DNA of 64,000 nt from an uncultured Bacilli bacterium (GTDB lineage Bacteria; Bacillota_I; Bacilli_A; RF39; UBA660). The stretch spans positions 154,765 through 218,764 of the forward strand of contig CANQFD010000002.1 in NCBI GenBank assembly GCA_947598325.1, read 5' to 3'. The notes beneath the pieces were generated by a model. It was not told the DNA's origin and ran no database searches. It worked only from the letters and a program-made list of their open reading frames with translations. A program made the translations under genes and the position numbers. Below are positions 17,240 through 34,859 of this stretch, in pieces. Every line of letters begins with the position of its first letter. The stretch's first letter is position 1.

Positions 17240-17311
17240 ATAGAAATCCTCCATATTATATATAATATTAAACCATTTTTTTAATAAAAAATCAATTATA
17301 TAATAAAAAAA

Positions 17312-18255: not shown

Positions 18256-19056
18256 ATGTTATTACTAGAATATATAATTTTAGGAATTATTCAAGGGTTT
18301 ACTGAACCACTACCAATTTCATCTAGTGGACATTTAAAAATTTTTAAATCTATATTTAATAATGAAGTTTTAAGTGATATGAATTTTGAAATAATTGCTA
18401 ATTTTGGATCACTTATTGCTATATTAATACTTTTTAGAAAAGAAATATTAAATATAATAAAAGACTTTTTTTATTATATTAAAACAAAAAATAAAAAATA
18501 TAAGGTTAATTATAATTATGCATGGTTAATAGTAATAGGAACTATTCCCGCAGCAGTATGTGGTTTAATTGCTAAAGATTTTATTGAAAAATATTTCACA
18601 ACAAAATTAGTAGGTTTAATGCTTATAATAACAGCTATTTTATTATTTATGATAAAAGATATAAAAGGTGAAAAAGAAAAAAAGGATATAAGTTATAAGG
18701 ACGCAATTAAAATAGGTTTATTCCAAGTAATTGCACTTCTTCCTGGAATAAGTAGAAGTGGTGCAACAATTGTTGGAGGTATGAAATCTAATTTAAAAAG
18801 GGACATAGCTCTTAACTATTCTTTTATGTTATATATTCCAGTAAGTATTGCAAGTATGATACTGGGTATTAGTGATTTAATGAATATGAGCAATTTAAAT
18901 GAATTACTTATACCATATTTAGTTAGTATGATAGTTACAGGAATTGTTACTTATTATTCCGCTAAATTATTTATTGATATTATGAAAAAAGGAAAACTTA
19001 TATATTTTTCCATATACTGTATTATTGTTGGATTAATCGTATTTATTATGTTTTAA
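18256..19056 (+). CDS. uppP: Undecaprenyl-diphosphate phosphatase
   Basis: Contains FTEPLPISSSGHL and PGISRSGATI, the BacA/UppP motifs. Start moved to the ATG after AGAGGTGA. Confidence 0.9.
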   Translation: MLLLEYIILGIIQGFTEPLPISSSGHLKIFKSIFNNEVLSDMNFEIIANFGSLIAILILFRKEILNIIKDFFYYIKTKNKKYKVNYNYAWLIVIGTIPAAVCGLIAKDFIEKYFTTKLVGLMLIITAILLFMIKDIKGEKEKKDISYKDAIKIGLFQVIALLPGISRSGATIVGGMKSNLKRDIALNYSFMLYIPVSIASMILGISDLMNMSNLNELLIPYLVSMIVTGIVTYYSAKLFIDIMKKGKLIYFSIYCIIVGLIVFIMF

Positions 19057-20123: not shown

Positions 20124-20690
20124 CTATTTTATAAATTTATTTATAACTTTAGATGCTAAATACGCAAGTATAAGCATAACTATTATTTGTGCTATTACAT
20201 ATGGATCTGATATACTTTCTAAAAAACTCTTACCAATAAATCCCCAAAAGTATACCATTGGTATTTTTCCAACCATAAGAGCTGAAAAATATTTTTTTTG
20301 ATCTATATCAGATAAACCTGCACCTATATTAACTGCAAATGCTGGTGTAAATGGCATAGCAATTAAAAGAACTAAATTAGTATATGATATTTTTCCTATA
20401 TATTTTTTAAACTTCATTACATTTGGTTTAGATCCATATCTTTTATCAAATTTTTCTCTTAATTTTCTAGAGCAAAAAAACGAAATCATACATCCAATCA
20501 CGGTAGCAATCCAAGAGACAATAAAACCAAACAATGAACCAAATGATATTACATTAATTGCTATAAAAACTGAAAGGGGTAATACCGGAATTATTGATTC
20601 AAGAATTATTAAGATAAAACCTGATAATATTCCAAAAGATGTCATTAAATTAGTTAAATACTCTATTATTTGTGATATATATTGTTCCAT
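20124..20690 (-). CDS. TVP38/TMEM64 (DedA/SNARE-associated) family membrane protein
   Basis: Start at the ATG at 20690 after GGAGG. Polytopic. The core FGSLFGFIVSWIATVIGCMISFFCSRKL is typical of the VTT domain. Confidence 0.7.
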   Translation of the reverse strand: MEQYISQIIEYLTNLMTSFGILSGFILIILESIIPVLPLSVFIAINVISFGSLFGFIVSWIATVIGCMISFFCSRKLREKFDKRYGSKPNVMKFKKYIGKISYTNLVLLIAMPFTPAFAVNIGAGLSDIDQKKYFSALMVGKIPMVYFWGFIGKSFLESISDPYVIAQIIVMLILAYLASKVINKFIK

Positions 20691-20784
20691 ATAATCCTCC
20701 ATTGTTATTATAACCATATATTAAAAAAAAATAAAGTTTTAACTTTATTTATTTAAAAAATAAATGTAAACATATATCTTCCAT

Positions 20785-21057
20785 CTATGATATATATTTA
20801 TCGTATCCACCTATTACATCAACTACATCATACCCTAATATTTCTAATAATTCACAACATTTTTTACTCTTATACCCTGAAGTACAATATATATAATATG
20901 TTTCATTTTTATTTAAATATTTACTATGTAAATCAAGTAAAGTATCCATATCAATATTTTTTGCATTATATATATGCCCCTTTAAATATAATTTTTTGCT
21001 TCTTATATCAATTATATTAAAGTTAGGTCTTAAATCAGTAGGATTTATTTTTTTCAT
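20785..21057 (-). CDS. Rhodanese-like single-domain protein
   Basis: Contains IIDIRS...Y..GHI..A.NI and the active-site loop YCTSGYKS. Start moved to the ATG at 21057. Confidence 0.8.
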   Translation of the reverse strand: MKKINPTDLRPNFNIIDIRSKKLYLKGHIYNAKNIDMDTLLDLHSKYLNKNETYYIYCTSGYKSKKCCELLEILGYDVVDVIGGYDKYIS

Positions 21058-21084
21058 ATTATTCACCAATATATAATATGAAAA

Positions 21085-21125
21085 AAGAAAAAATTGGTTA
21101 TATCTTGTGAAAAATTAACCAATTT
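21085..21125 (-). terminator. Terminator at the end of the T4SS operon
   Basis: 10-bp stem aaattggtta / taaccaattt with a 15-nt loop. On the minus strand it is followed by tttcttttttc. It overlaps the T4CP stop codon. Confidence 0.5.
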
Positions 21126-23373
21126 ATTCTTCAAAGAAGAAATCATCAAAAAAGTCATCATAATCATCTTCTTTAGAAGTGCTAGTATCATCTTTATCAT
21201 CGTTAATATTATTATCTGAAACACCAGCATGAGTTTTAATAGTTTCATCGTTATTTGGAGTTTCCTTGATATTAAATGATTCAAAGTCTAACATATTACT
21301 AGGAATAATATTATCTTCTGTCTTTTTAGTTATTTCTTTTTCTTTTTCCTTATCTATATTTTCAATAGAACTAGGTAATGGAAGTTCATTTTTTATATTT
21401 TCATCATTTTTTAAAGTAGTATCTGTTTCCTGAATAACTGAAGATGTTTTTTCCTTTTCTTTTTGTTTTTCTTTTTCTTCTTCTTTTTCTAGTCTTGCTA
21501 TTTCAGCATCTATTTCTTTTATCATTTTATCTATATCAAAATTAGATGGATTAGGATTTGGCATTCCTGGGAATGGTGGAAATGGCATACTTGGCATTAC
21601 TCCACCATTATTTGATGAATCATTATTTTCTATATTTTTTAACATTTCTTGTTTTTTATTTCTAACAAACTCTTTTATATCAAATGTTTTAATTTCAGTC
21701 ATTTCTCTCTCTGGATAAATAACATTTTTTCCATAATGATCTACACCTTTTCCAAAACCAAAGTCTGTCTCAAAATCTTTCTTTAATTTTCCTCTAAATG
21801 GTGGACATCTATGTTTTATTAAAACAATCTCATCATCTTTCATTCTTTGAAGTTCTGATATAGTAACAAGTGGTCTTGTTTCTTCTTTTTTATCTTTACC
21901 AACTTTAACAAGTTTATCACCACATAGTTTACTAATTTCTTCAAGAGCAGATAATTCACCTGTTAATAAGTATATTAAGTTCCCACAGTTACCACGAATT
22001 GTTTCAGCATCATGATCACCATATACTTCTTTTATTTGTGCAAAGTTTTGTATTATAAATAAAAATCTTATTCTTCTTGAACGTGCTGCAGTTACCATTG
22101 TAGTTATATCTTTAAATTTAGGCATATTAGCAAACTCATCTAGTAGGAAATTTACTCTAACTGGAAGAGCACCGCCATGTTTATGCGCAACGCTTATTAG
22201 TGATTCATAACACTGCTTAACAAATATAGTAGCAAGTGAATGATATGTTGTTTTCTCATCTTGTATTATCATAAATACTGCGGTTGGTCTTTCACCTATT
22301 GTATCCATCTCAAAATCATTTTTAGAAAGCATCTCTGATAGATTTTTAGTAACAGCTAATGTCTTAACTTTTTGTTTTAAAACTGATACTATACCACCTT
22401 TTGTCTCATTTGGAGCATTTACAGTTCCAAGAGCATTAACACACGCTGGTGATGCAGGATCTTTAGCATTAAAATATTCTTTTAAATAATTTGATGCACC
22501 ATATCTATCTTCTCCAGTTGTCATCATTAAATTAACACTATTTATATTTATTTCTTCAGGTTTTGCATCTTCAAACATAGCAAGAGAAAGACCTGTTAGA
22601 TAACTAGCTGCAGAATCTTGCCAAAATGGATCTTGTGCTTTACCATCAACAACTATATTAGATGACAAATCATCTAAAAGTTCATTTGCTTTATCAAAGT
22701 TACCTTCTTTTTGAAATTTATATGGTAAATGATATGGATTCCAACAATTACCTTTTTGAGGATCACGAAAATTTAATATTATAATATCGTAACCTAATTC
22801 TCTTAAAAGTCCAGAGTTATCTTCATATATCTCGCCTTTTGGATCTGATACAATCATTGACTCTTTTGCTTTCATAAGCATCTTCATAGTTGGATTAATT
22901 ATTCCTGCTGTTTTACCTGAACCTGTAGCACCAAGTACTAATGTATGACTTTCACCGTTATCAACATACGCAGCATCTTTATCATAAACAAGTGGTACTC
23001 CACCATATTTAGACTCTTTATCTACAAATGGAACTCTTTCTACTCCTTTTGAGTTTTTTATTTCTTCTGCTTTAGCCCATCTAGAATAACCATCTTCTTT
23101 TTTTTCACTTACATATCCAAAACCTTTTTCTCTAGTAAAAAAATATGATGATGTTGAAGTAAATAAAAATGCTATAGAAAAAAACCAAAATAATAATGTA
23201 GAAATTATATACCTAGGAGTAAAAGCCAAAAATGGATTAAGTCCCCAAGGTGTTCCTTCTTGAACTATAAATGATACGTTCAAAATACATACTGCTACTA
23301 AATAAAGCATAAAGAATGCAACACATACAAAAGCAATAACATCCTTTTTTTCTGCTCTAAACTTTAATTTCAT
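21124..23373 (-). CDS. virD4: Type IV coupling protein (VirD4/TraG family) with a long Pro-rich and acidic C-terminal extension
   Basis: Two N-terminal TMs. Walker A LVLGATGSGKT. Walker B/TraG motif FLLDEFANMPKF. Start moved to the ATG at 23373 (the GTG at 23382 is part of AAGGTGA). Confidence 0.9.
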   Translation of the reverse strand: MKLKFRAEKKDVIAFVCVAFFMLYLVAVCILNVSFIVQEGTPWGLNPFLAFTPRYIISTLLFWFFSIAFLFTSTSSYFFTREKGFGYVSEKKEDGYSRWAKAEEIKNSKGVERVPFVDKESKYGGVPLVYDKDAAYVDNGESHTLVLGATGSGKTAGIINPTMKMLMKAKESMIVSDPKGEIYEDNSGLLRELGYDIIILNFRDPQKGNCWNPYHLPYKFQKEGNFDKANELLDDLSSNIVVDGKAQDPFWQDSAASYLTGLSLAMFEDAKPEEININSVNLMMTTGEDRYGASNYLKEYFNAKDPASPACVNALGTVNAPNETKGGIVSVLKQKVKTLAVTKNLSEMLSKNDFEMDTIGERPTAVFMIIQDEKTTYHSLATIFVKQCYESLISVAHKHGGALPVRVNFLLDEFANMPKFKDITTMVTAARSRRIRFLFIIQNFAQIKEVYGDHDAETIRGNCGNLIYLLTGELSALEEISKLCGDKLVKVGKDKKEETRPLVTISELQRMKDDEIVLIKHRCPPFRGKLKKDFETDFGFGKGVDHYGKNVIYPEREMTEIKTFDIKEFVRNKKQEMLKNIENNDSSNNGGVMPSMPFPPFPGMPNPNPSNFDIDKMIKEIDAEIARLEKEEEKEKQKEKEKTSSVIQETDTTLKNDENIKNELPLPSSIENIDKEKEKEITKKTEDNIIPSNMLDFESFNIKETPNNDETIKTHAGVSDNNINDDKDDTSTSKEDDYDDFFDDFFFEE

Positions 23374-23429
23374 AATATTCACCTTTTTTCATTTATTATT
23401 ATATCAAAAAGATAAGTATTTTTGAATAC

Positions 23430-26400
23430 TTATTTTACTCGCAATATTTTTACAATTTGAGATATCGTATGACCTGAACTTGTTATTCCTGGAATTCTAA
23501 TAGAAGCTGTCGAACCAGCATTATATACTTTTAAAATACCATTTGAGTATCCTGCATAAATTTCAACATGCCCTTGATATATTAGTATATCTCCTGGTTG
23601 TAGATTGTTTTTATTTACTTCAGGAAATTTCCAAGAATTTGCATAAAAGGTTCTATCATTTTGCTGATAACCACAAAAATTATCATATCCTGCATCACAT
23701 AAAACCCAAGAAACATATGAAGAACAATCTATTGTTTTTGTTCTATAATTTGGTACAACTATACCTGATTGAGAATAATAATATGAATTTTGTGCTATAT
23801 ATTTTTTTATTTTTATAGCACTTGGAATTATTTTATTAGATCCACCAGTAGTACCAGAAACAGTTGATGTTGATGGTGCATTTGCATCTTTATATTTTTT
23901 ATATATAGATTTTGCTGAAGATATTCTGCTATCGATATGTGGAACACCTGGTTTTTCAAATCCCTTACAAAATAATGTAGTAGCAGAAGCTATATCATCT
24001 TCAGAACTAGCATTATACCATGATTTATACCAAGATTCATTTTTATGACCACTTAATTCTTTAATTAAATACTCCATTTGCATTTGCAAATCACCTATAC
24101 TAGTTTTCTTTCTTTTAGCATAATTATATAATGATTGTTTTCTAGTATAATATGTCCACTGTGCAAGTCCATAACCTATAGAATCATTTATAAAAGTTTT
24201 TGAAGATAATTTCCCACTATCAACATTTTCAGTATATGTTTTACTTAATTTATAATCTTGGCTTCCATCATCGCCTTGTTTCCTATATGATATTAAGCCA
24301 GACTCTGCATTTAAGTTTCCCATTGCTGCTGCCGTTGCCTCTTTAGAATAACCTAAATTTCTAAAATACCACCATATTTTATCAATATCACTATCACCAG
24401 TTAATACTGAAGAATTACAAGCAACAAATAAATTAATTGGATCTACTGAAACTCCATTATCACTACCATCATCACTTCTGTATTCAAAATGAAGATGAGG
24501 CTCTTTTGAATCTCCTGTATTTCCTATTTTTCCTATTATATCTCCCTTTTGAACTTTATCTCCTACTTTTGGTTGTCCACTATTTTCTTTTAAATGCATA
24601 TATACACTAATAAATTCATATTTATTACCATCTACCATTATTGAATGTTTTATTCTTACCCACGCACCATAACTACTTGTACAATTTGGATCAGAATTAG
24701 TATTACAACTATTATTAGGTTCAGATGATATAACCTTACCACTCGCAATGGCATATACATTATCTCCTTCATTATTTCCTGTAGTTTCTTTATTTATATC
24801 AACCCCATTATGCATAACACCATTTCTTATTCCGTATGGATATGGTTCGCTAAACGAAACTTGTCTATTAGCTGGTATATCTACAGGAACTCTAAGTTCT
24901 GATACCAAATCCTCTGGTATACCTCCTGAACATGCAGGATTATAAGATTCTGCTGGTTTTTCTGTTTGTCCATAAACACTTGTATACCAACTAGCATGAT
25001 CATATATTTCATTAATAATATTATCTATTTCTCTATCTAAAGATAAACCTTCTAAACCTTTAAGATATGGTTTAAACTCTGGCATTTTTTTAATATAAAA
25101 ACTAGATAAATAACCTTTAAATTTTTCCTCATCATAACGTTTCGAATATACAGTTAAATAAATTTGTTCTTGACCATTCTCATCTACCCCATATTCCATA
25201 CTTGAAATACTTTTTAAACCCATAGAATATGTTTCTAATTGTCTAGATAAAGCAGTATATACTGAATCACCTGCAGTTATAAAAGTTGGTCCAAATACAA
25301 AATTGAATGCGCTTTTAAATAAATCTATTGAGTTTTGAAGTGGATTTGCAGACATTAACATTCCTATTAAAGCATCTTTAGTATTTTCCAAATCACTTGT
25401 TAATATCTCTCCATATCTCCTTTTAAATTCATCTAAAGTTATTCTTTCTCCCTGATTTGATCCCTCAAGCATTCCTGAATTAAGCATTCTAAGTCTCAAT
25501 ATCATACCTTGTGTATATTGATTATTTTTATTATACTGACTAACAATATCTTTAAAAATTTGTTTAGAATTATCACTATCATCTAATTGAGAATAATCCG
25601 TTGTATAATCATTTCTTGTTTCAGAATAATATAAAGCACTCATAACTAAAGGAAGATTAAGTTCTCCTGCACTTTTATTATATAAATACTCCATTTCTTC
25701 ATAAAAAGCTTCTTCCGTTGTCTTATATCCAAGACCAGAATATAAGTTACCTGCTTTTTCTGCTGTTTTAACCGTACCATTTAAAAATTCTGCAAATTTA
25801 TCCAAACTATCTATTACTGGACTCATAATAAAATAAAAGACCATTATTATCATAAATATAATTCCAATAGTTAAGAAAAAATATAATTTCCAATGTTTTA
25901 ATACTTTTTTTATCTGATTGGGAGGAGTTACATCATTTCCCTTAAATACAGATGATGATGTTTTACCTGGAGAAGACAAAGCATTCTTTTTCATATCAGC
26001 TGCTTCTTTTTTTATTTTATCTCCTGTTTTAGATAATTTATCACTAGCCTGCTTTGTTTTATCACCAGCCTTTTCAAGGCCTTTACTAGTTTTATCTACA
26101 CCTTTTCCTGCAAGCTCAGTTCCTTTACCTAATGCACTAACTCCTCCACCTGCTAGTTTACCTGCACCGCTTACAACTGAGCCAAGTGGAGCACCAATAT
26201 ATGGAATAGCTGATAAGGCAGATCCAGCAGCTGATGAAGCAGAGCTTATACCTTTCCCTGCACTTTGTAATCCTTTTCCGGCAGTTTGCATTCCTTTTCC
26301 AGCAAGCTGACCACCTTTTCCAGCGCCTTTCATTGCTGATCCTGCTGCTTTACCAGCATTACCTACACCTTTTGTAACATTTCCAGCAGTATTAACAGTA

Positions 26401-26543
26401 TCTGCAGCTTTTTCGGTCGCAGATTTAGTTTCTTTTTTTTGTTGAGATTGTGGATTAACTTTAGTATAAGGTTCTTCATAGGGCTCATCATAAGATTCTT
26501 CTTCTAATGTTTCTTCTTCTAAAATCTCCTCATTTTCATCCAT
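23430..26543 (-). CDS. T4SS cell-wall hydrolase: acidic N-terminus, Gly/Lys/Ala repeat, TM, then M23 peptidase + lysozyme-like + NlpC/P60 domains
   Basis: M23 motifs HNGVDI and GDSKEPHLHFEY. AAAMGNLNAESGL resembles the phage-tail-type lysozyme motif. NlpC/P60 Cys (IDCSSYVSWVL) and His (GHVEIYAG). TM LYFFLTIGIIFMIIMVFYFIM. Confidence 0.85.
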   Translation of the reverse strand: MDENEEILEEETLEEESYDEPYEEPYTKVNPQSQQKKETKSATEKAADTVNTAGNVTKGVGNAGKAAGSAMKGAGKGGQLAGKGMQTAGKGLQSAGKGISSASSAAGSALSAIPYIGAPLGSVVSGAGKLAGGGVSALGKGTELAGKGVDKTSKGLEKAGDKTKQASDKLSKTGDKIKKEAADMKKNALSSPGKTSSSVFKGNDVTPPNQIKKVLKHWKLYFFLTIGIIFMIIMVFYFIMSPVIDSLDKFAEFLNGTVKTAEKAGNLYSGLGYKTTEEAFYEEMEYLYNKSAGELNLPLVMSALYYSETRNDYTTDYSQLDDSDNSKQIFKDIVSQYNKNNQYTQGMILRLRMLNSGMLEGSNQGERITLDEFKRRYGEILTSDLENTKDALIGMLMSANPLQNSIDLFKSAFNFVFGPTFITAGDSVYTALSRQLETYSMGLKSISSMEYGVDENGQEQIYLTVYSKRYDEEKFKGYLSSFYIKKMPEFKPYLKGLEGLSLDREIDNIINEIYDHASWYTSVYGQTEKPAESYNPACSGGIPEDLVSELRVPVDIPANRQVSFSEPYPYGIRNGVMHNGVDINKETTGNNEGDNVYAIASGKVISSEPNNSCNTNSDPNCTSSYGAWVRIKHSIMVDGNKYEFISVYMHLKENSGQPKVGDKVQKGDIIGKIGNTGDSKEPHLHFEYRSDDGSDNGVSVDPINLFVACNSSVLTGDSDIDKIWWYFRNLGYSKEATAAAMGNLNAESGLISYRKQGDDGSQDYKLSKTYTENVDSGKLSSKTFINDSIGYGLAQWTYYTRKQSLYNYAKRKKTSIGDLQMQMEYLIKELSGHKNESWYKSWYNASSEDDIASATTLFCKGFEKPGVPHIDSRISSAKSIYKKYKDANAPSTSTVSGTTGGSNKIIPSAIKIKKYIAQNSYYYSQSGIVVPNYRTKTIDCSSYVSWVLCDAGYDNFCGYQQNDRTFYANSWKFPEVNKNNLQPGDILIYQGHVEIYAGYSNGILKVYNAGSTASIRIPGITSSGHTISQIVKILRVK

Positions 26544-26577
26544 AATCTCACCACCTAACTTCTATTTTTTTAATATT

Positions 26578-28368
26578 TTATAGTCCACCTTTTGACCCAA
26601 ATGAATCAAGTTCTGATTCTGTTGCAATTACACTTATTTGCATACGTTTATTACCACATACGAATAACGCATCACCTTGATTATATCTTTTAATATTTTC
26701 TTTTTCATTATCATTTAAGTCAATTAATTTACTTAAATCTTCTACAGCCTGTTTTCTAAGACCCATTACTAAATAATAAGATGAATTATCAAATATTGCT
26801 TTACCTTGCATTAACACATCTGGTGCTGCAAAATCACTAGGTTGTTGTGTTATTACTATTGTTCCAGTATTATATTTACGAGCACGTCTTTGAACATTTG
26901 CTAAGAAATCAGCACCTAAAGTATTATTATTGCCTAATAAAGTATGAGCCTCATCTACCATAAGAACTGTATTAATTGATGTATCTAAACACAAACTCCA
27001 TGCATGTTTTAATATATTGAAGAATAATGCATTTTTTATATTTTTTTCAGCATTCATAAGTTCTCTTATATTAAATACTATAAAATTTGATTTTGGGGCT
27101 ATTGTAGTATGGCCATCAAAATAATGTTCTAAACCACCAAAAGTAAGTGGTCTAACTTTTAACTCAAGTCTTTCCATTATATCTCTTTCACGAGTAGCTT
27201 CACCATATGATAAAATTCTTCCTCTTATTGTTTTATACACATCACTAAATGTTGGAAAATCCTCTGATGATAATTCCGAAAAGTTTGTATTAACATTTAT
27301 ATTAAATCTCTGATATGTTTCTACTACTACCTCATTAAATAAAGTAAGTACGTCTTCTTCTATAGATGGATCATAATATCTCATAAATGCTTTTAATGTT
27401 TGAAGTGTTTTTGTTAAAACTGCATATCCTACACCTCTAGAAGATTCTTCATCATCTGAATCTGGAACTATTTCAAGTGGATTTATCATTCCAAATTCTC
27501 CACCTCTACCTAAATCTATAAAATCACCATCATATAATCTAGCCATAGGTTCAAGTTCACCTTCTGGGTCTATTGCAACTATTTTATAATTATTTCTTAT
27601 ATGTGATCTTAATAATAGTTTTGCTGCGGTTGACTTACCTGATCCAGATGTACCAAGTATAATCATATTTGCATTATTTCTATTATATTCTTTCTTTATC
27701 TGATACAAAAATTGATTAAATAGTATAATACCTCCAGAAAAGTCCACTCCAAGAAGACATGATAATCCTTGATCTTTAATACTATCAAAAATAAATGGAT
27801 ACATTGCTGCAAGTGTTGGTGATGGAATTGGAGTACCTATTCTATCTTCAATATCTTGCTTATCAAATATAGGTAAACATGATTTTAGAACTTTTTCCTG
27901 TTCAAATCTAAGAGGTATAGCTCTCATTTCCATTGCTTCTAAAACTGATTTTATTTGTAATTTTCTTTTTTCTAGCTCATCTTTTGTATCTGCGGTAATC
28001 ATTATATGAAGTTGAAAATCAAACACCTTAGATTGGTTTGTTGTAATAACTTTAATAAAATTTTCAAGTGATTCATAATCTTGTCTTATTCTCTCTTGAA
28101 GAGTTGGATCATTTTCATGTTGATATTTATCTTTTAATTCTATAAGTTGTTTATTTAACATTTTAGATACCATTTCAAAACCAACAGGAATGTGTTTTGC
28201 TACTATTTTAACACCTGTTACACCTGTTGTTAGATTTGCTAAATAACCATGATTAATATATTTTGGATAGGAAATAACAGTTAATATAGTTGCATACTTA
28301 TCACTTATAAAAAATTCATTTGCATTAAATGTCATTCCTTTTGGTGCTACTTCTTTTTTTAAACTCAT
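26578..28368 (-). CDS. virB4: VirB4-family T4SS ATPase (C-terminal two thirds)
   Basis: Walker A IILGTSGSGKST and Walker B VLMVDEAHTLL. At 596 aa it is shorter than the usual ~650-830-aa Gram-positive VirB4. Confidence 0.9.
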   Translation of the reverse strand: MSLKKEVAPKGMTFNANEFFISDKYATILTVISYPKYINHGYLANLTTGVTGVKIVAKHIPVGFEMVSKMLNKQLIELKDKYQHENDPTLQERIRQDYESLENFIKVITTNQSKVFDFQLHIMITADTKDELEKRKLQIKSVLEAMEMRAIPLRFEQEKVLKSCLPIFDKQDIEDRIGTPIPSPTLAAMYPFIFDSIKDQGLSCLLGVDFSGGIILFNQFLYQIKKEYNRNNANMIILGTSGSGKSTAAKLLLRSHIRNNYKIVAIDPEGELEPMARLYDGDFIDLGRGGEFGMINPLEIVPDSDDEESSRGVGYAVLTKTLQTLKAFMRYYDPSIEEDVLTLFNEVVVETYQRFNINVNTNFSELSSEDFPTFSDVYKTIRGRILSYGEATRERDIMERLELKVRPLTFGGLEHYFDGHTTIAPKSNFIVFNIRELMNAEKNIKNALFFNILKHAWSLCLDTSINTVLMVDEAHTLLGNNNTLGADFLANVQRRARKYNTGTIVITQQPSDFAAPDVLMQGKAIFDNSSYYLVMGLRKQAVEDLSKLIDLNDNEKENIKRYNQGDALFVCGNKRMQISVIATESELDSFGSKGGL

Positions 28369-28949
28369 TATGAAATCACCGTCCTATTTTCAGTTTTTAC
28401 CCCACCATTTAAAAAGTTATCAAGAATCATTCTTAAATCCTCATTTGATGTTTGAGAAGCAATTAAACCACAAGATGCAAGACCATTAATAAGTGTTCTA
28501 ACTGTTTTCTGAAGCAAATCATTATCACTTTCCTTAAATAAAATATAATATTCTGTATCAACAACATTATTATTGATAAAAAATTCTGCTTTATTTATAT
28601 CATCTATTATTAATTTTCTAAGAACAGGATTAGCTGTATCATTTAATTGTAACTGTAACTGTGATATATATAAATTAATATCTACAGGTCTATCAGCTAC
28701 TATAAGCCAAAATTCAAAATCAATAAGATTGTAAAATGTCTTTAAAGACTCAATAATATTATTCTGTGACATTTCATCTAATATAAAGATATTTTTAGGC
28801 TGTATTTTTACACCTGATACCATTTTCTTATCATCTAAATATATAATATTATTTGTAATCGATTTTACTGTTATCCAATTTTCTGTAAAAGCACTATTTG
28901 TATTCATCTGTATAGCACCAACCTTTCCATTTATAATTTCTTCTTCCAT
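28368..28949 (-). CDS. Probable detached N-terminal domain of VirB4
   Basis: 193 aa. Its stop overlaps the VirB4 ATG (TAATG). The sequence ...IKSITNNIIYLDDKKMVSGVKIQPKNIFILDEMSQNNIIESLKTFYN...FWLIV resembles the N-terminal region of TrsE/PrgJ-type proteins as I recall them. The start codon is uncertain (28949 or 28907). Confidence 0.45.
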   Translation of the reverse strand: MEEEIINGKVGAIQMNTNSAFTENWITVKSITNNIIYLDDKKMVSGVKIQPKNIFILDEMSQNNIIESLKTFYNLIDFEFWLIVADRPVDINLYISQLQLQLNDTANPVLRKLIIDDINKAEFFINNNVVDTEYYILFKESDNDLLQKTVRTLINGLASCGLIASQTSNEDLRMILDNFLNGGVKTENRTVIS

Positions 28950-29199
28950 AAAAGAAACTTATCATTTCTTTAATAACTGTAAGTATATTATGATAATTAG
29001 GAACTGGAATAACTAAAAATGAACATGTTAAACCAGGAGCCAAACATATTATTGATGTTGATAAACTCTCTGGAGATATTACTACCAGTAATATTATTGA
29101 AACTAGTATTCCAACTCCAAATAATATTAAATCAAACCAGGTAAATATATTAAATATTAAATTACCATTTTTTGAATTAGCAGGTATTAAATAATTCAC
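28894..29199 (-). CDS. VirB3/PrgI/TcpE-like small membrane protein
   Basis: 101 aa with two TM helices, immediately upstream of the VirB4 genes, as PrgI is to PrgJ. GTG start 11 nt after AGGAG. Confidence 0.5.
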   Translation of the reverse strand: MNYLIPANSKNGNLIFNIFTWFDLILFGVGILVSIILLVVISPESLSTSIICLAPGLTCSFLVIPVPNYHNILTVIKEMISFFYGRRNYKWKGWCYTDEYK

Positions 29200-29220
29200 T
29201 ATATATCACACTCCTTTTTA

Positions 29221-31854
29221 TTAATCATTTAAATTTGAATCTATAATCCTAGAATATACATCACTATATTCACGTTTCAATTCTTCAAGTTCATTTCTTT
29301 CATCAGCTGTTAAGAAATCCTTATCTTGTAATTCTTTTATTCTATCACTTATTCTAGTTAATCTTTCCTGTAGACTAACATTAGAAGCTTTTCTTTGAGG
29401 TTGTTCAATAGGTTCAATTCTTGGTGGTGTTGATGAATCTGTATTTGACGTTTGAGTATTAGAATTACTACGTGGGATATAAATTCCACTATCTGTTTGA
29501 GTTAAATTTGAATCTTGTGCCCATGTAGGTAAATCCTGACTACTTCTTTGATTTACATTATTATAACCACCTTGAGAATATGAATTATTTGCATTTTGAA
29601 TTAAGGATTCATTTGGTCTATTTGTACTTGAATGAGAATTTTGGTTTGAATTTAGATTTTGTCTATTTGTACTTGAAGAATTTTGATTTGAATTTAGATT
29701 TTGTCTATTTGTATCTGGAGAAGGAGTTTGGGTATAATCATTACTTGGACCAACATATTGATTCTTATATCCACTGCTACCCTTTGATGCCATAGAAGCA
29801 TTTTTTTTGTTAATAATATTAGAAGCTTCCATATACCTATCAATTACAGATTTTTCTTTATCACTAGATTGATTATATGAAGCATCATACATCTTCTTTG
29901 CATACTCAACTTGTTGCTCAGCAGCACTCAAATTTTGTTTTATTCCTTTAACACTTATTTTTCCATTTTCTATCAATTTATCGCCTAAACCTGTTGAAGA
30001 TGCAATATTTAATATATTATCTAAATTACCGCTTATACTTCTTGCAGCTGAAGTTGATATTTCCCCATTAGAAACCATTTGATTTAATCTATTTGCAAAT
30101 TCTCTATGAGTAATATTTCCACTGCTAAAATCATCTTCTAAATTTTCTAATTTTTGTTTTAATTGAATAGATTTTGTATTATCTCTTGCATCTAATAATT
30201 TTTCAGATATTTTATCAGCACTTGTTTTCATTTTTTCAGCTGTCATTTTATTTTTATTAGCTACATTTAGTTTTCTTATATTTTCTTTAGTATTACCATT
30301 TAATGTTGAATTACTTAAACTTCTATCAAATCTACTTTGAGTATCTGCCAAATTCTGTATTTCATGATTTTCTGGATCTATTCCCATTTTACTATATAAT
30401 TTATCTGTAGCTTGTTGTTCTTTAATTTCAGCTGCTGATATTTTACTTAATTGAGCCTGTGACGAACTACTAAATGCTTTTGCACCAGAAACAATACCTT
30501 TACCATATGAACCTGCTTTCATGCCGGCACCTATAGTGCTTCCTGCTCTTCCAAGACCAGATTTAATAGCTGACGGAGCATTTCTAACTCCTTTTTCAAG
30601 TGAAGTTTGAGCATTTCTTAACTTTCTTTTTAAATCCTCTTTTGCTGTACCATTTCTCAAAGATTCTATCATATTTGGAATGGATTTTGCACCACCTACT
30701 GCTGCTTTTCCTGCTCCTAAAGCTGCTGCACCTAAAGCACCTCCGCCTAAAGCCAAAGCTGCTCCACCGGCACCTCTCACAGCACCCCAAGCTCTTTGTG
30801 CAAGTCCTCCAACTGCTGCCATACTACCAAGTCTACCTGCAATTCCACCTTTTTGTGAAATACTAACACCAAATATTCTTTCTATTAATTTTGTAGATTC
30901 ATTAACAAACATTAATAAGCCCATAATAATTAATAATTTAGCAAGCCAGTCCCATGAATTCTTAAAATTATCATCAATAAATGATGGAAGTATACTCATA
31001 ATATATATCATAAGAGCTAAAGCTGCGATTCTAATAAATATGCTTACTGCTGTACTTCCAACCTCTTTAAACCACTTTTTAAGAATGTCATCCCCAGCAT
31101 AAATATATGCAATTACTATCATTGGTGAAATCAATTCTAAAAATGTCATTTTTATTAATCTTACAGCCGTATCTATACAAAATAAAACTAAAAAATATAC
31201 AATTAAACCACCAGAAACTATTGCTATTAACCATTCAAATTCAAGAACATATTCTTCATCATCTTCAGAACCATCTGTTTTTTCATTTATACTTTTTCCT
31301 ACTTGTTTTATTTTACTTATATCCTTTTCTACCATTTTTGAATAATTATTTGCTAACGTTTCAGATGACGTTTCAATATTATCAGAAGATGGATATAGTA
31401 CCGCTGATATTGCTGTACCAGCTAATATTTGTCCACCTCCACTTTTTTCTGCTAAATTTTCTCCTTGATTAATTTGTACTCCTACTAAAACTTTTTCAAT
31501 CAAATTATTATCTAAAACCTGTGTTTGAAATTTATAAAAATAATTAAAAAGAAACGGAATAGCAACTATTAAACACATTGATATAACTGATCTTTTAATA
31601 ACAGAAGTAAAACCTTTTTTTGAATCAAAAAGAAGATCTGGATTAATTATTGATTCTATAGCCTTTACTGCAAAGGCAAATAACATTATAACACTAACTA
31701 AAACATAGATGTTTTGTGAAAAACTTTGTACTTCCTCCGTTGTTAATAATCTTGTTGAGGCAAGATCATAAAATAATCCATATAATTTTGGAATCAAAGG
31801 ATATAATACAGAACAAATTGTAATAGCTAATGATCTAAAAAAATTAGTTAACAA
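29221..31854 (-). CDS. VirB6-like polytopic T4SS membrane protein with a Gly/Ala-rich segment and long hydrophilic C-terminal region
   Basis: About 7 predicted TMs in the first ~330 aa. A GGIAGRLGSMAAVGGLAQRAWGAVRGAGGAALALGGGALGAAALGAGKAAVGGAK tract follows, then a coiled-coil and Asn/Ser/Gln-rich tail. TTG start 5 nt after GGGGAGTGA. Position equals that of PrgH/Orf15-type proteins. Confidence 0.6.
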   Translation of the reverse strand: MLTNFFRSLAITICSVLYPLIPKLYGLFYDLASTRLLTTEEVQSFSQNIYVLVSVIMLFAFAVKAIESIINPDLLFDSKKGFTSVIKRSVISMCLIVAIPFLFNYFYKFQTQVLDNNLIEKVLVGVQINQGENLAEKSGGGQILAGTAISAVLYPSSDNIETSSETLANNYSKMVEKDISKIKQVGKSINEKTDGSEDDEEYVLEFEWLIAIVSGGLIVYFLVLFCIDTAVRLIKMTFLELISPMIVIAYIYAGDDILKKWFKEVGSTAVSIFIRIAALALMIYIMSILPSFIDDNFKNSWDWLAKLLIIMGLLMFVNESTKLIERIFGVSISQKGGIAGRLGSMAAVGGLAQRAWGAVRGAGGAALALGGGALGAAALGAGKAAVGGAKSIPNMIESLRNGTAKEDLKRKLRNAQTSLEKGVRNAPSAIKSGLGRAGSTIGAGMKAGSYGKGIVSGAKAFSSSSQAQLSKISAAEIKEQQATDKLYSKMGIDPENHEIQNLADTQSRFDRSLSNSTLNGNTKENIRKLNVANKNKMTAEKMKTSADKISEKLLDARDNTKSIQLKQKLENLEDDFSSGNITHREFANRLNQMVSNGEISTSAARSISGNLDNILNIASSTGLGDKLIENGKISVKGIKQNLSAAEQQVEYAKKMYDASYNQSSDKEKSVIDRYMEASNIINKKNASMASKGSSGYKNQYVGPSNDYTQTPSPDTNRQNLNSNQNSSSTNRQNLNSNQNSHSSTNRPNESLIQNANNSYSQGGYNNVNQRSSQDLPTWAQDSNLTQTDSGIYIPRSNSNTQTSNTDSSTPPRIEPIEQPQRKASNVSLQERLTRISDRIKELQDKDFLTADERNELEELKREYSDVYSRIIDSNLND
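29612..29716 (-). repeat. In-frame tandem repeat (45 + 42 + partial unit) inside the VirB6-like gene
   Basis: The unit gtctatttgtacttgaa(tga)gaattttg(g/a)tttgaatttagatttt occurs ~2.3 times. It encodes TNRQNLNSNQNS(S/H)S repeats. Confidence 0.8.
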
Positions 31855-31859
31855 TTAAA

Positions 31860-33299
31860 TCACTCCCCACTTATTATACATTTCAGTAATGACACATCAC
31901 TCGAACTTTCATCTGTACTAAATGATGAAAGAAAAATGTTAATTAATGTTGGTATAAGAAATAAAAGTATTACTGCTAATAATCTTCTTGGAAATTTTTT
32001 CCAACATTCTTTAATCTTTACTTCATCACCAGCTATTACTGCTTTACTGAAATCAAGAACACCAAACAATATAGTTAAAACTGGTGCAATAATAAGTGCC
32101 AAAATCCATAAATCATGAAGTATTGATACATCTGAACATTTTAACTTATATGGTTTAAATTTTACGCTAATTGTACCAACTTTTCCCTTATTTAATTTAT
32201 ATTTTACTTGTTCCAAAGAATCTTGTAAATCTGACATTGTTTTATTGTATTTTTCTGTGAGCTGTGCATATTCTTCTTTGCCCATAATATTTTCTAAACA
32301 CGCAGTTTTAGCAGTTGTATCTTGAATATTTTCGCAGCTATTAAATGCAGTAATGCATTTGCTATAAGATTCAGAACTAGATTTACAAGCTGATGTTGAA
32401 GTTGAATTTTCATTCATGCATAAAACTTCACATCTGTTGGCATTTAAAGAATTTATATCTTCAACTAAAGATTCTTCTAATTCTTCATTTTCATATAGTT
32501 TGCTTATACTTTTTGACCCTTTTCTTGGTAACTTAGCAAATTCATATATTTCATCATATTTAGTGCCACCAAATCTCTTTGCTATATCTCTTAAATCTGA
32601 ATTTTGTTCAAAAACAGAAACATAATTATTTGCTTGTTTTGAATAATTAGCATAAGTTACTCTAGCTCCCCAGCAATCTTCAGACATATTTTTATCCATT
32701 GCTTCCTTAGAAACATTACCATATCTAGAAGATATATATGATGTAAAATTTTCAACGTTATAATTATCTTTATCAATATATTTTTTATAATCTGAACCGC
32801 AAGCTTGCTTTAATGATTTTTCTACCCTATCAAATGTAGAGTTAATGTTATTTATCGTATTTTTTAAATATATCTTATATGTTTCCTCATATGAATTTTT
32901 CGTTGCTGAATCTACTTTAGAAGAATATAAAGGCATTATTGTTACTGTATCTAATGGTTTACTTTTAAGTTGATCTATAAATTTGCTTTCACTTGATTTT
33001 TTTAAAGTTTTATTTATCACGTAACTAGAAAAATCAACATATTTAGGACACTTATTATCTGCTATTACTTCTTTATTAAAGCCATTATCTTTAAAATTAG
33101 AAGCCTTACCATCTTTAACAACTTTTAGATTATATTCAGATCCCCCACTTGTAGTGCTATATATAACTTCAGTATATTTTGCATTTTCATAAGGATACAA
33201 ATATCTACAAGTTATTTCTTGTGCTGCATATGTATTATTAATATTTATAAAAAATGAAATAAATAATATTATCATTACATAGATACACTTTTTTTTCAT
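31860..33299 (-). CDS. Secreted Cys-rich protein ending in a VirB2/pilin-like two-TM module
   Basis: Signal peptide ...NNTYA-AQE. At least 14 Cys lie in the extracytoplasmic part. The C-terminal ~95 aa (LALIIAPVLTILFGVLDFSKAVIAGDEVKIKECWKKFPRRLLAVILLFLIPTLINIFL) is paralogous to the 119-aa protein encoded upstream. Confidence 0.6.
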   Translation of the reverse strand: MKKKCIYVMIILFISFFININNTYAAQEITCRYLYPYENAKYTEVIYSTTSGGSEYNLKVVKDGKASNFKDNGFNKEVIADNKCPKYVDFSSYVINKTLKKSSESKFIDQLKSKPLDTVTIMPLYSSKVDSATKNSYEETYKIYLKNTINNINSTFDRVEKSLKQACGSDYKKYIDKDNYNVENFTSYISSRYGNVSKEAMDKNMSEDCWGARVTYANYSKQANNYVSVFEQNSDLRDIAKRFGGTKYDEIYEFAKLPRKGSKSISKLYENEELEESLVEDINSLNANRCEVLCMNENSTSTSACKSSSESYSKCITAFNSCENIQDTTAKTACLENIMGKEEYAQLTEKYNKTMSDLQDSLEQVKYKLNKGKVGTISVKFKPYKLKCSDVSILHDLWILALIIAPVLTILFGVLDFSKAVIAGDEVKIKECWKKFPRRLLAVILLFLIPTLINIFLSSFSTDESSSDVSLLKCIISGE

Positions 33300-33383
33300 A
33301 CTAAAACGCCTTTCTTATTCTATATTAATAATACCATAGTTTTTTTAAAAAATATAGATTTTTATATGAATTTACAAAAAAAT

Positions 33384-33404
33384 AAAAGAGTTTAAAACTC
33401 TTTT
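33384..33404 (-). terminator. Intra-operon hairpin after the small pilin-like gene
   Basis: Stem aaaagagtt / aactctttt with a 3-nt loop. On the minus strand it is followed by atttttttg. Confidence 0.45.
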
Positions 33405-33421
33405 TAAAAATACTTGTTTAT

Positions 33422-33781
33422 TTACTTTGTTTTGTCTTCTAATGTTTTAGAATTAATTTTTTCATATTGTTTATCACTATTCCAACAGTCTTTCCATTCT
33501 GAAGCATCACTAACAAATATATTTATAACCCAGTTAACAATAAATGGTATTAAGAAAACAATTACTGCAGAAACTAGTCTCCAAATAAAAGGTTTTTGTC
33601 TTTCTTTTATCTTTTTTTCATCACCAGCGATTACTGCTCTACCCATATCAACTGTACCCCACAAAATTAGAGCAATTGGTATTATCATTTGTAAAAATGT
33701 AATAACTTTCTTTAAAATAGAAGTTATAGTCGCAGCTTCATCAGTACATTTCATAAAATCTAATAAATTTAATAATTCCAT
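33422..33781 (-). CDS. VirB2/TrbC-like (pilin-like) two-TM T4SS protein
   Basis: 119 aa with a perfect RBS (AAGGAGGAattcgaaATG). Two TM helices flank a basic loop DMGRAVIAGDEKKIKERQK. First gene of the operon, as for pilin-like genes in other T4SS loci. Confidence 0.5.
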   Translation of the reverse strand: MELLNLLDFMKCTDEAATITSILKKVITFLQMIIPIALILWGTVDMGRAVIAGDEKKIKERQKPFIWRLVSAVIVFLIPFIVNWVINIFVSDASEWKDCWNSDKQYEKINSKTLEDKTK

Positions 33782-33807
33782 TTCGAATTCCTCCTTAATA
33801 TATTACT

Positions 33808-33836
33808 ATTTTATATTTATTTATAATAATTGTCAA
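33808..33836 (-). promoter_or_regulatory. Near-consensus sigma-A promoter of the T4SS operon
   Basis: The minus strand reads TTGACA-17 nt-TAAAAT, ending ~14 nt before the AAGGAGG RBS. Confidence 0.55.
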
Positions 33837-33886
33837 GAAGATATATTTTAATTTAAATAATTTCATTTAATATTGTAAAATTTAAT

Positions 33887-33915
33887 TTGTATTTTTAATG
33901 TTTATATGATAATAT
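33887..33915 (+). promoter_or_regulatory. Candidate sigma-A promoter for the thioredoxin-like lipoprotein gene
   Basis: TTGTAT-17 nt-TAATAT, ~20 nt upstream of the ATG at 33935. Confidence 0.4.
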
Positions 33916-33934
33916 TTATATGGAGATGATAGTT

Positions 33935-34345
33935 ATGAAATTAATAAAAAAAATTTTTATATTATCCTTATTTGTAATGATCCTTTCAGGATGTGGTAAG
34001 AGTTATATTATTGATTCATCAATTGAAGATATAGTTAAAAAAGTTAATAACAACGAATCTTTTATTTTATATATTGGAAGCAGTAATTGTTCTCATTGTA
34101 AAACATTTAGACCAAAATTAGAAAAAATAGTTAATAATAATAAAATAGAAGTTTATTATGTTGATATATCTAAACTTGATCAAGATGAACTTAGTATTCT
34201 TTCTAGTATTTCTAGTTATTCTGGAACTCCTAATACAGCATTTATAGTAAATGGAGAGGATCCAGGATCCCAGACACATATTGATGGAGATGTAGATGAA
34301 AGTTATATAAAACAAGCTCTAAAAGATAATGGTTATTTAAAATAA
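33935..34345 (+). CDS. Thioredoxin-fold lipoprotein (CxxC)
   Basis: Lipobox MILSGC. The segment ILYIGSSNCSHCKTFRPKLEKI is a thioredoxin-like active-site context. Confidence 0.75.
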   Translation: MKLIKKIFILSLFVMILSGCGKSYIIDSSIEDIVKKVNNNESFILYIGSSNCSHCKTFRPKLEKIVNNNKIEVYYVDISKLDQDELSILSSISSYSGTPNTAFIVNGEDPGSQTHIDGDVDESYIKQALKDNGYLK

Positions 34346-34352
34346 CCATTTT

Positions 34353-34859
34353 TTATTTTATTAAATAATCCTCACCCTTATGAGGTTCTTTAGTTAATAA
34401 ATCATTAAAATTTTGCTGTCTTAATACTTCATATATTACAATTGCAGCAGAATTAGCTAAATTTAATGCTCTTACTTTATCAGTCATTGGAATTCTCATA
34501 CAACTATCTAAATTATCTTTTAGTATTTCTTTTGGAATTCCTGTACTTTCTTTTCCAAATATTAAATATATATTTTCTTCTTTATTTGTATAATCGAATG
34601 ATGTATGTGGTTTTTTTCCATATCTTGTAAAAAAATAATATTTTCCCTTGTTTTTAGATTTAAAATCTGCATAACTATCATATACCTCATAATTTAAATT
34701 TTCCATATAATTAGTTGCACTTCTCTTTACATATTTATCATCAAGTGAAAAGCCAAGTGGTTTTATTAAATGTAATTTTGTATTAGTTGCAACGCAAGTT
34801 CTCATTATATTACCTGTATTACCTGGTATTTCTGGTTCAAATAGTACTATATTATTCAT
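34353..34859 (-). CDS. trmL: tRNA (cytidine/uridine-2'-O)-methyltransferase TrmL (SpoU family)
   Basis: Contains IVLFEPEIPGNTGNIMRTC and the C-terminal SPOUT knot IPM...RALNLANSAAIVIYE. Start moved to the ATG at 34859. Confidence 0.85.
   Translation of the reverse strand: MNNIVLFEPEIPGNTGNIMRTCVATNTKLHLIKPLGFSLDDKYVKRSATNYMENLNYEVYDSYADFKSKNKGKYYFFTRYGKKPHTSFDYTNKEENIYLIFGKESTGIPKEILKDNLDSCMRIPMTDKVRALNLANSAAIVIYEVLRQQNFNDLLTKEPHKGEDYLIK

Follow-up and report, generated by a model that had tools for sequence, protein, structure and literature searches.

The 64-kb window analysed here, a stretch of DNA from an uncultured member of the RF39 Bacilli whose own coordinates are used throughout, carries, between 33781 and 21124 on the minus strand, an operon of eight intact head-to-tail open reading frames (ORFs) that encode the parts of a type IV secretion system (T4SS). 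An original prediction, made from the sequence letters alone, had described eight intact minus-strand genes between these same positions, and all eight are there. It had left the operon between two readings, either the remnant of an integrative and conjugative element (ICE) whose mating-pore half is still under selection, or a domesticated T4SS put to a use other than self-transfer. The features of the operon, from the promoter to the end of the last gene, are as follows.

33808..33836, minus strand: sigma-A-type promoter, TTGACA-17 nt-TAAAAT; an AAGGAGG ribosome-binding site and the pilin ATG (33781) come next.
33422..33781, minus strand: VirB2-like T4SS pilin, 119 aa (PF18895 T4SS_pilin, 32.1 bits against a cut-off of 26.6).
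31860..33299, minus strand: secreted Cys-rich pilin fusion, 479 aa; a signal peptide precedes ~360 aa of ectodomain, and a pilin module with two transmembrane (TM) helices forms the C-terminus.
29221..31854, minus strand: VirB6-like polytopic channel protein, 877 aa (NCBIfam matches and TM helices).
28894..29199, minus strand: VirB3/PrgI-like protein, 101 aa, two TM helices (NF045975 positions 3-96, E 1.2e-4).
28368..28949, minus strand: VirB4 N-terminal domain as a separate TraC-like protein, 193 aa (NF045975 positions 98-282, E 3e-15).
26578..28368, minus strand: VirB4 ATPase, 596 aa, Walker A GTSGSGKST and Walker B MVDEAH (Pfam P-loop_TraG, AAA_10, DUF87).
23430..26543, minus strand: cell-wall hydrolase, 1037 aa (PF01551 (M23) 4e-20, PF18013 (Phage_lysozyme2) 4e-28, PF00877 (NlpC/P60) 1.4e-4, a weak match).
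21124..23382, minus strand: VirD4-type type IV coupling protein (T4CP), 752 aa, or 749 aa from the ATG at 23373 (PF02534 2.8e-58, PF10412, PF12696).
21136..21153, minus strand: FFDDFF C-terminal motif of the T4CP (alignment of 69 sequences).

A VirB4 ATPase with intact Walker motifs is thus present, and clustered with it are the VirB6-like, VirB3-like, hydrolase and VirD4 proteins of a monoderm conjugative-type core. The motor is encoded in pieces. The 101-, 193- and 596-aa ORFs together tile the single model NF045975, which describes the VirB3-VirB4 fusion of Mycoplasma ICEs, and the predicted combination of a two-piece VirB4 with a VirB3/PrgI-like protein is therefore correct. VirB4 itself covers positions 294-890 of that model at 361 bits, below the curated cut-off of 590, and is consequently not a member of the Mbov_0397 family; its nearest solved structure is the C-terminal domain of Thermoanaerobacter VirB4 (4AG5, 7e-53). 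The 193-aa ORF also has a precomputed Pfam match to PF26593 TraC-like, its stop codon and the VirB4 start overlap in the sequence ATGA, and the VirB4 of the Bacillus plasmid pBMB68 is split likewise. The position of the VirB3-like gene equals that of the PrgI-family gene of the same plasmid. The VirB3-like and TraC-like ORFs share 56 nt (28894-28949), read in different frames, and close relatives keep this overlap. The 877-aa protein, predicted to be polytopic and VirB6-like, matches several conjugal membrane-protein models in NCBIfam (MMCAP2_0566 3e-20, pLS20_p028 4e-18, Mbov_0396 3e-10, all under their cut-offs) as well as, weakly, Pfam TrbL_4, and has at least five TM helices within residues 44-282. 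Its C-terminal region is long and of low complexity, and includes three 42-nt tandem copies at 29590-29718 that encode STNRQNLNSNQNS-like peptides.

The first two genes point to a surface structure. The 119-aa protein belongs to PF18895, scoring above the gathering threshold and forming a two-TM hairpin (helices at 21-39 and 63-81), as expected of the VirB2-like protein that had been proposed; of the 80 loci from other species compared below, 63 have a pilin-family gene at this place. The pilin module recurs in the C-terminal ~90 residues of the Cys-rich fusion (43% identity over 74 aa, E 1e-15), which bears out the earlier description of a Cys-rich secreted protein ending in that module. Twelve of its cysteines are invariant, and just four homologues are detectable in 5.8 billion proteins. 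An AlphaFold2 model built from this four-sequence alignment is of low confidence (pLDDT 63.5, pTM 0.37) and would give a mostly helical ectodomain with two TM helices; when it was compared with the PDB by Foldseek, no match at E 0.001 or better appeared. The fusion is probably a surface or tip component.

The hydrolase joins an N-terminal half, composed of a Gly/Ala/Lys-rich region, one TM helix (217-235) and a domain at ~236-575 with no recognized fold, to a C-terminal half with M23 peptidase, lysozyme-like and NlpC/P60 domains. All three of the enzymatic domains named in the original prediction are matched in Pfam, NlpC/P60 weakly. In related loci a hydrolase invariably comes next after VirB4, with a domain make-up that varies and includes, for example, SpoIID-containing forms. 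The interval between hydrolase and T4CP is broken in two species, at the related loci L012 (15062-16414, minus strand) and L068 (16293-17543, minus strand), by opposite-strand ORFs of 416-450 aa, which may be insertion sequences.

In the coupling protein, two TM helices at the N-terminus are combined with an ATPase domain (GATGSGKT, LLDEFAN) and a linker that is both long and variable. The VirD4 assignment stands on PF02534 and on the NCBIfam model conju_CD1115 (NF045973), to which the protein scores 313.2 bits against an equivalog cut-off of 250, which places it in the CD1115 VirD4 family. Behind the hypervariable linker, and always among the last ~10 residues, stands the motif FFDDFF, which is exact in 67 of 69 aligned coupling proteins and reads LFDDFF and YFDDFF in the remaining two; the VirD4 of pBMB68 lacks it. 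Such conservation implies a conserved, host-encoded binding partner. In the F plasmid, the acidic C-terminal tail of TraD docks TraM, and by analogy FFDDFF is likely a docking site for cargo or an adaptor. A resemblance to the C-terminal tail of SSB (the SSB in the window ends ...DDDIAF) was also considered, and mimicry was dropped because the T4CP has no terminal hydrophobic residue.

Expression would be driven by the sigma-A-type promoter. In a scan of 20700-34400 (13.7 kb) the TTGACA-17-TAAAAT site is the top promoter-like match, with 11 of 12 positions, and it lies 27 nt upstream of the pilin ATG. Eight species of one family, that of the window, keep the -10 and show no change in the -35 hexamer, while the neighboring intergenic DNA diverges. 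The near-consensus promoter ahead of the operon that had been predicted is therefore a conserved feature.

A scan of one genome per GTDB species, which recovers VirB4 relatives sharing exact peptide words, found such relatives in 108 stretches; the comparisons given here use the best 80 of the 108, all from different species-level genomes. These 80 loci come without exception from uncultured gut Bacilli, Clostridium sp. CAG:433 and Ca. Coprosoma (genus CAG-822) included, and cover at least two RF39 families (CAG-433 and CAG-822); VirB4 is 67-88% identical across them. They share an order that begins with one or more pilins, a variable secreted or pilin-fusion protein and the VirB6-like, VirB3-like, TraC-like and VirB4 proteins, and that continues through a variable hydrolase and the T4CP into rhodanese, (DedA) and rmuC. 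All six core families are present as intact ORFs in 50 of the 52 loci with enough flanking sequence. With the window counted, the VirB6-like gene was found in 72 loci, the VirB3-like gene in 75 and the TraC-like gene in 79. The Walker motifs are invariant in all 80 aligned VirB4 sequences and in all 69 aligned coupling proteins. The original prediction had proposed aligning the locus to related genomes, and the operon indeed lies at the same site in the 80 species-level genomes retrieved through VirB4. Moreover, it diverges along with its surroundings: pairwise distances of VirB4 and of the neighboring rmuC are correlated (Pearson 0.86), with means of 0.264 for VirB4 and 0.292 for rmuC, VirB4 being if anything the more conserved. 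The operon thus appears, with high confidence, to be fixed at one chromosomal site and vertically inherited.

Selection on the genes was estimated between the window and a closer relative with a 94%-identical VirB4. Synonymous divergence (dS) is 0.65-1.2 in T4SS and flanking genes alike. The ratio of nonsynonymous to synonymous divergence (dN/dS) is 0.056 for VirB4 (range 0.05-0.06) and 0.145 for the T4CP (0.12-0.15), beside 0.063 for rmuC and 0.152 for ung, and stands at 0.11 for the TraC-like protein and 0.11-0.20 for the VirB3-like protein. Purifying selection holds the motor proteins as tightly as housekeeping genes, and this implies that the host benefits directly. The surface parts evolve fast, with values of 0.48 for the pilin (0.43-0.48), 0.54 for the pilin fusion (0.26-0.54), 0.50 for the VirB6-like protein and 0.38 for the hydrolase (0.34-0.38).

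Relaxase and integrase are both absent from the locus, as might be expected of an ICE remnant in decay that is intact in this genome by chance. Against such decay, however, stand the six core families, intact in 50 of 52 loci, the invariant catalytic motifs, a motor dN/dS of 0.05-0.15 and the conserved promoter. Given intact synteny, co-divergence with the flanks and purifying selection, the decaying remnant is rejected; its probability is close to nil. The second reading of the original prediction, a domesticated T4SS, is supported, as the operon is syntenic in at least 80 species, co-diverges with its flanks and is kept by purifying selection. In at least two RF39 families the locus combines features by which domestication can be recognized, namely lineage-wide vertical inheritance, purifying selection and no relaxase in cis.

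The mobility genes require closer attention. Among all window ORFs of at least 100 aa, Pfam searches found no relaxase, Rep_trans protein, recombinase, transposase or excisionase, and searches of the window found no tRNA genes or Rfam matches. Direct repeats resembling attachment (att) sites, for which the original prediction had suggested looking, were searched for around the cluster and none was found. The MobP3 relaxase of pBMB68 gave no tblastn match in the window or in 81 related loci. Likewise, a relaxase is absent among the best 25 of the 53 Pfam families matched by 75 unannotated in-cluster ORFs of the related loci, a result that excludes strong matches only. In the 64-kb window and the related loci no relaxase or origin of transfer (oriT) belonging to the locus was found, and neither an integrase nor att sites nor variable presence was found in the window or across the 80 species retrieved through VirB4.

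Beyond the right end of the window the picture differs. The source contig (ENA ERZ27249228, NODE_13, 225 kb) runs on for ~6.4 kb, and within this extension lies one further feature, resembling an integrative and mobilizable element (IME).

L092 1998-5452, window-equivalent ~64.9-68.4 kb: IME-like module, starting ~0.9 kb past the window end.

One gene of the module encodes a large serine recombinase of 643 aa, another a MOBV (Mob_Pre) relaxase with the motifs HNCR and HYDESCPHLH. Between the two genes is a GC-rich region with two inverted repeats, CTAAGG-CGAG-CCTTAG and ATGACAAAAT...ATTTTGTCAT, which looks like an oriT. Two small unannotated ORFs follow the relaxase, and then the contig ends; the ~5.5 kb of the mobilizable element recovered up to that point contains no T4SS or T4CP gene. 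A metagenome scan with the MOBV relaxase returned one trivial fragment only. The genome is therefore not relaxase-free, and the claim that no relaxase or recombinase is to be found holds for the window and fails for the genome, where both occur on the same contig. A KilA-N domain protein and a 110-aa ORF (together 62502-63349, minus strand) lie near the mobilizable element, between GNAT acetyltransferases and a Ham1-like/UDG pair.

Might the operon and this module be two halves of one larger, mobile ICE? A serine recombinase, a Mob_Pre relaxase and a GC-rich inverted-repeat region on the same contig, ~31 kb from the promoter, would supply what the operon lacks. What fills the intervening 31 kb, however, is a run of single-copy core genes whose order is canonical (trmL, ung, rlmH, rplI-dnaB, rpsF-ssb-rpsR, ychF, parAB, rplM-rpsI, cdaA-cdaR and nrdDG), and part of this block is syntenic in distant relatives. 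In addition, the 80 other species have no relaxase or recombinase homologue within ±10 kb of the operon, the operon equals its flanks in dS and in GC content at third codon positions (GC3), and no att-like repeats were found. With such a distance and such genes between them, the mobilizable element is separate and not part of the T4SS; the module looks like an accessory mobilizable element in its own right rather than the missing half of an ICE, and a larger ICE is very improbable. That the element is a client of the chromosomal T4SS is plausible.

The immediate neighbors of the operon are co-oriented with it and are recognized by Pfam.

20785-21069, minus strand: rhodanese.
20124-20717, minus strand: DedA.
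19053-20114, minus strand: rmuC.

No terminator-like site was found between the T4CP stop (21124) and the rhodanese gene (21069), and the order T4CP-rhodanese-(DedA)-rmuC recurs in related loci. These three genes would serve as markers of the ancestral chromosomal site and are treated as neighbors, not as functional parts. For rmuC, a role as a DNA-processing partner was considered; the sole evidence is the conserved linkage to the T4CP gene, and it is kept as a neighbor only. Further out on this side is uppP. On the promoter side are trmL, gerQ, LemA, ung, rlmH, rplI-dnaB, rpsF-ssb-rpsR, ychF, parAB, rplM-rpsI, cdaA-cdaR and nrdDG. Both housekeeping flanks named in the original prediction (trmL/gerQ/ung and rhodanese/DedA/rmuC/uppP) are seen in the Pfam scans, and the flanks are ordinary core, origin-proximal chromosome. 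The related claim that the cluster is as AT-rich as its surroundings is true of GC3, at 0.116 in T4SS genes and 0.106 elsewhere (range 0.05-0.17), but not of total GC, which is somewhat higher in the cluster (28.9% against 24.9% in the rest of the window) because of codon positions 1 and 2. In a close relative (L088 19456-21479), rmuC and uppP are separated by an inserted Abi_2 abortive-infection gene and a gene for an HtrA-like protease, an arrangement that shows local variability directly beside the fixed T4SS block. One further neighbor is divergent from the T4SS promoter.

33920..34345, plus strand: thioredoxin-like (PedC-like) lipoprotein (PF00085 at 7e-8; precomputed annotation PedC-like).

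Among the related loci, this gene adjoins the pilin gene in L004, L088 and L089, and does not in L002. The lipoprotein is a possible helper in disulfide formation of the Cys-rich pilin fusion.

As for origin, the RF39 VirB4 clade is a single representative at 50% clustering. Outside it, identity is 43% and 39% for two rare metagenomic clusters and no higher than 35% for the rest. Outgroups with a name belong to the Erysipelotrichales (Thomasclavelia ramosa, Solobacterium) or, in one case, to a plasmid of the Mycoplasmatota. The outside relatives are parts of genuine mobile elements. In T. ramosa the VirB4 homologue sits in a classical ICE with a terminal serine recombinase, a sortase, SpaA adhesins, an SSB and a Toprim protein, and the same order is found there of pilin-sized protein, VirB6-like, VirB3-like, TraC-like, VirB4 and hydrolase. 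The nearest plasmid VirB4 proteins, at 30% identity, are those of pAW63/pBMB68-type B. thuringiensis plasmids; in pBMB68 the CD1115-family VirD4 is followed by TrbL-like, PrgI-like, split VirB4 (227 aa plus DUF87) and NlpC/P60 hydrolase genes and, farther on, by a Tad-like set (SAF, AAA, T2SSE ATPase and two membrane proteins). On the simplest account, a monoderm conjugation machine of the pAW63/Mycoplasma-ICE type was captured by an ancestor of these RF39 families, the relaxase and integrase were lost from the locus so that the transfer apparatus alone survived, and the machine was then inherited vertically at one origin-proximal chromosomal site.

A working model of the machine can be drawn from homology, from which all its steps are inferred. 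The operon would be transcribed from its constitutive-looking sigma-A promoter; the hydrolase would open the cell wall; the VirB6-like and VirB3-like proteins and the split VirB4 would build and power a membrane channel; and the VirB2-like pilin, together with the Cys-rich fusion, would form a fast-evolving surface structure that contacts the target cell. The VirD4 coupling protein would recruit cytoplasmic cargo, probably via its FFDDFF tail. DNA-protein complexes would be the most likely cargo, with the T4SS serving as a resident mating pore that mobilizable elements with a relaxase of their own, such as the one found at a distance of 31 kb, could use in trans, and possibly also for exchange of chromosomal DNA as in mycoplasma chromosomal transfer. 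That the operon encodes a still working translocation machine is quite likely. That it is, more specifically, a captured conjugation machine owned by the host, a resident mating pore with DNA-protein cargo, is a reading to which we give about an even chance. The cargo taken by itself would be DNA with a probability a little short of even, and protein delivery or another interaction has a lower one; the remainder falls to uptake or to a role as a pilus only.

Support for DNA as the cargo comes from several directions. The T4CP exceeds the equivalog threshold for a family of conjugal proteins, VirB4 and VirB6 find their best models in proteins of the Mycoplasma ICE, whose pore supports chromosomal transfer, every relative with a known function is conjugative, and a mobilizable element that has no T4SS of its own lies on the same contig. 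A number of observations weigh on the other side. A relaxase or oriT belonging to the locus was found in none of the 80 species, whose ±10 kb surroundings of the operon also lack relaxase and recombinase homologues, whereas in conjugative relatives the T4CP normally adjoins a relaxase, as in pBMB68 with its MobP3 relaxase directly upstream of VirD4. The reading frame of the MOBV relaxase extends upstream to ~L092 4097 without a canonical start codon. A VirB8-like (PrgL/TraM/TcpC-type) component has no Pfam or NCBIfam match among the eight operon proteins; Mycoplasma ICEs are likewise without one (PMC12857230). Finally, aiding selfish mobilizable elements gives the host no obvious benefit, and such aid alone therefore cannot explain order-wide, housekeeping-level selection.

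This last consideration leads directly to the possibility of an exapted, non-conjugative T4SS, which would deliver effectors, toxins or adhesion factors, or would mediate an obligate interaction with gut bacteria or host cells. The direct host benefit implied by selection would then be accounted for, as would the lack of a cis relaxase in 80 other species and the conserved T4CP tail with the host-encoded partner that it implies; fast surface parts joined to frozen motors are, in turn, what variable targets or an arms race would be expected to produce. RF39 genomes are also highly reduced, with many auxotrophies and no fatty-acid synthesis (PMC6784871), although in the nutrient-rich lumen of the gut such auxotrophies do not require a partner cell. 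The chromosomal T4SS of Patescibacteria offers a parallel in shared features (PMC12102498; PMC12857230). On the other side, no candidate effector was found in or beside the operon, the sequence relatives of known function are all conjugative, and the T4CP still scores in a conjugal family. Exaptation of this kind is a serious possibility, held with less than even confidence.

The surface parts raise one further alternative, in which the machine works inward, taking up DNA like H. pylori ComB or archaeal Ced, or assembles a pilus or adhesin with no cytoplasmic cargo at all. Pilin and pilin-fusion genes are prominent and diversifying, and scavenging of DNA would suit an auxotrophic lineage. In 43 of the 59 RF39 loci with enough upstream DNA, moreover, a Tad-like pilus module lies directly upstream of the T4SS pilin gene (for example L013 1-5500, L040 1-5600 and L071 1-6000), made up of an SAF protein, a T2SSE ATPase, two polytopic proteins, a 74-aa protein, two pseudopilin-like proteins of ~150 aa and a 330-aa protein. 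Homologues of this module were found nowhere in the window, whose own family is without it. ComB-type uptake and pilus-only systems need no VirD4 coupling protein, yet here a VirD4 with invariant ATPase motifs and a conserved tail is kept in 69 of 69 aligned sequences. The dispensability of the coupling protein in such systems is also described in a review (PMC12857230). The NCBIfam matches to CedB and CedD are weak and confined to P-loop regions. An inward or pilus-only machine is accordingly unlikely, and the resident mating pore with DNA-protein cargo is the reading preferred here.

Several other genes encode surface proteins or were considered as parts of the system. Downstream of the operon, at a distance of 4-25 kb, are several very large surface proteins (10689-17254, minus strand; L093 13068-18410 and 20310-20873). 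They include an SdrD-B-like protein (1310 aa), a protein with a thioester domain plus SpaA (872 aa, with a C-terminal TM anchor and no LPXTG) and additional SpaA-like giants (1780 and 1538 aa); adhesins similar to these flank the T4SS of the T. ramosa ICE. Two paralogues of ~400 aa with bacterial Ig-like surface domains and near-identical N-termini (893-2101 and 3151-4365, minus strand) enclose a tail-anchored protein of 290 aa. A last feature was examined as a candidate component.

52863-53567, minus strand: LppM-like lipoprotein, upstream of cdaA in a conserved housekeeping context.

Members of the same LppM-like family lie between hydrolase and T4CP in 31 other RF39 species, and the gene in the window was considered as a relocated T4SS lipoprotein. 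This was rejected, as the LppM-like gene is upstream of cdaA in relatives too; the in-cluster copies are therefore paralogues.

Whether T4SSs of Gram-positive bacteria serve purposes other than conjugation is described as a long-standing open question in a 2025 review, according to which VirB2-type pilins are otherwise not found in Gram-positive T4SSs (PMC12857230). What is new at the RF39 locus is a T4SS that appears to be vertically inherited at the level of an order, with no relaxase at the locus, with VirB2-like pilins and with a lineage-specific putative docking tail. In the full-text literature searched, RF39 and VirB4 together gave no match, and RF39 and type IV secretion gave passing co-mentions only, in three papers, as judged by titles and term counts. 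RF39 bacteria are uncultured, are prevalent in the guts of humans and animals, and lack fatty-acid synthesis as well as several pathways for amino acids and vitamins (PMC6784871). A conserved, contact-dependent machine may thus be a lead to how they live, how they exchange genes or how they might be cultivated.

Placing the operon among known systems depends on which resemblances are given weight. The order of genes had been likened to prgH-I-J-K...pcfC of pCF10 and to the tra region of pIP501. The general order VirB6-VirB3-VirB4-hydrolase is indeed shared, but a close sequence relationship to pCF10 or pIP501 was not found, the nearest plasmid matches being Bacillus plasmids. PrgK of pCF10 is a multidomain hydrolase, comparable to that of RF39. 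Both plasmids differ, however, in their MOB relaxases, VirB8-like proteins and tight regulation. The Streptococcus suis 89K system, to which the original prediction also pointed, is a Gram-positive T4SS with proposed effector export (PMC12857230), but it belongs to an accessory pathogenicity island of particular strains, is not a lineage-wide locus inherited vertically, and makes a poor comparator beside the three systems that follow.

The pAW63/pBMB68 plasmids share with RF39 a CD1115 VirD4, a small protein at the pilin position, TrbL-like and PrgI-like proteins, a split VirB4 and an NlpC/P60 hydrolase, and the Tad-like set of pBMB68 is homologous to the module upstream of most RF39 operons. 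In contrast, these systems are plasmid-borne, have a MobP3 relaxase upstream of VirD4, are only ~30% identical and have a T4CP without FFDDFF. The pore of the Mycoplasma ICE (CDS17 VirB4, of the Mbov_0397 family; CDS16, of the Mbov_0396 family; CDS5 VirD4) provides the best NCBIfam model for VirB4 (361 bits) and one of the best for the VirB6-like protein, and is similarly minimal, in a host that is related to the Bacilli and has a reduced genome. It differs in its fused VirB3-VirB4, its mobility as an ICE and its lack of a cell-wall hydrolase, whereas the RF39 operon has split genes, is chromosomally fixed and includes a large hydrolase and pilins. The same Mycoplasma pore also supports mycoplasma chromosomal transfer (PMC12857230).

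The closest parallel for an exapted T4SS is the chromosomal system of the Patescibacteria, or candidate phyla radiation (CPR), which is derived from the MPF_FATA type (Quinonero-Coronel et al. 2025, PMC12102498). Like that of RF39, it is monoderm, conjugation-derived, chromosomal and lineage-wide in auxotrophs with small genomes, mostly without a relaxase and often origin-proximal, and it comprises VirB4, VirB6, VirB3, VirB1-like and VirD4 proteins and several divergent VirB2-like pilins recognized through PF18895. The RF39 system differs in its phylum (Bacillota), in having no recognized VirB8-like part and in the Tad-like module of most species. The T4SS is essential for epibiotic growth in Saccharibacteria according to Wang et al. 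2023, as cited in PMC12857230. It is conceivable, though on balance doubtful, that RF39 likewise depends on its T4SS and Tad-like pilus as a core organelle for obligate cell contact, the Bacillota counterpart of the patescibacterial machine. If true, a conjugation machine would have become lifestyle-defining, independently or ancestrally, in two small-genome monoderm lineages. Patescibacteria are so far the only lineage-wide monoderm example, and the RF39 T4SS would be the second, in Bacillota.

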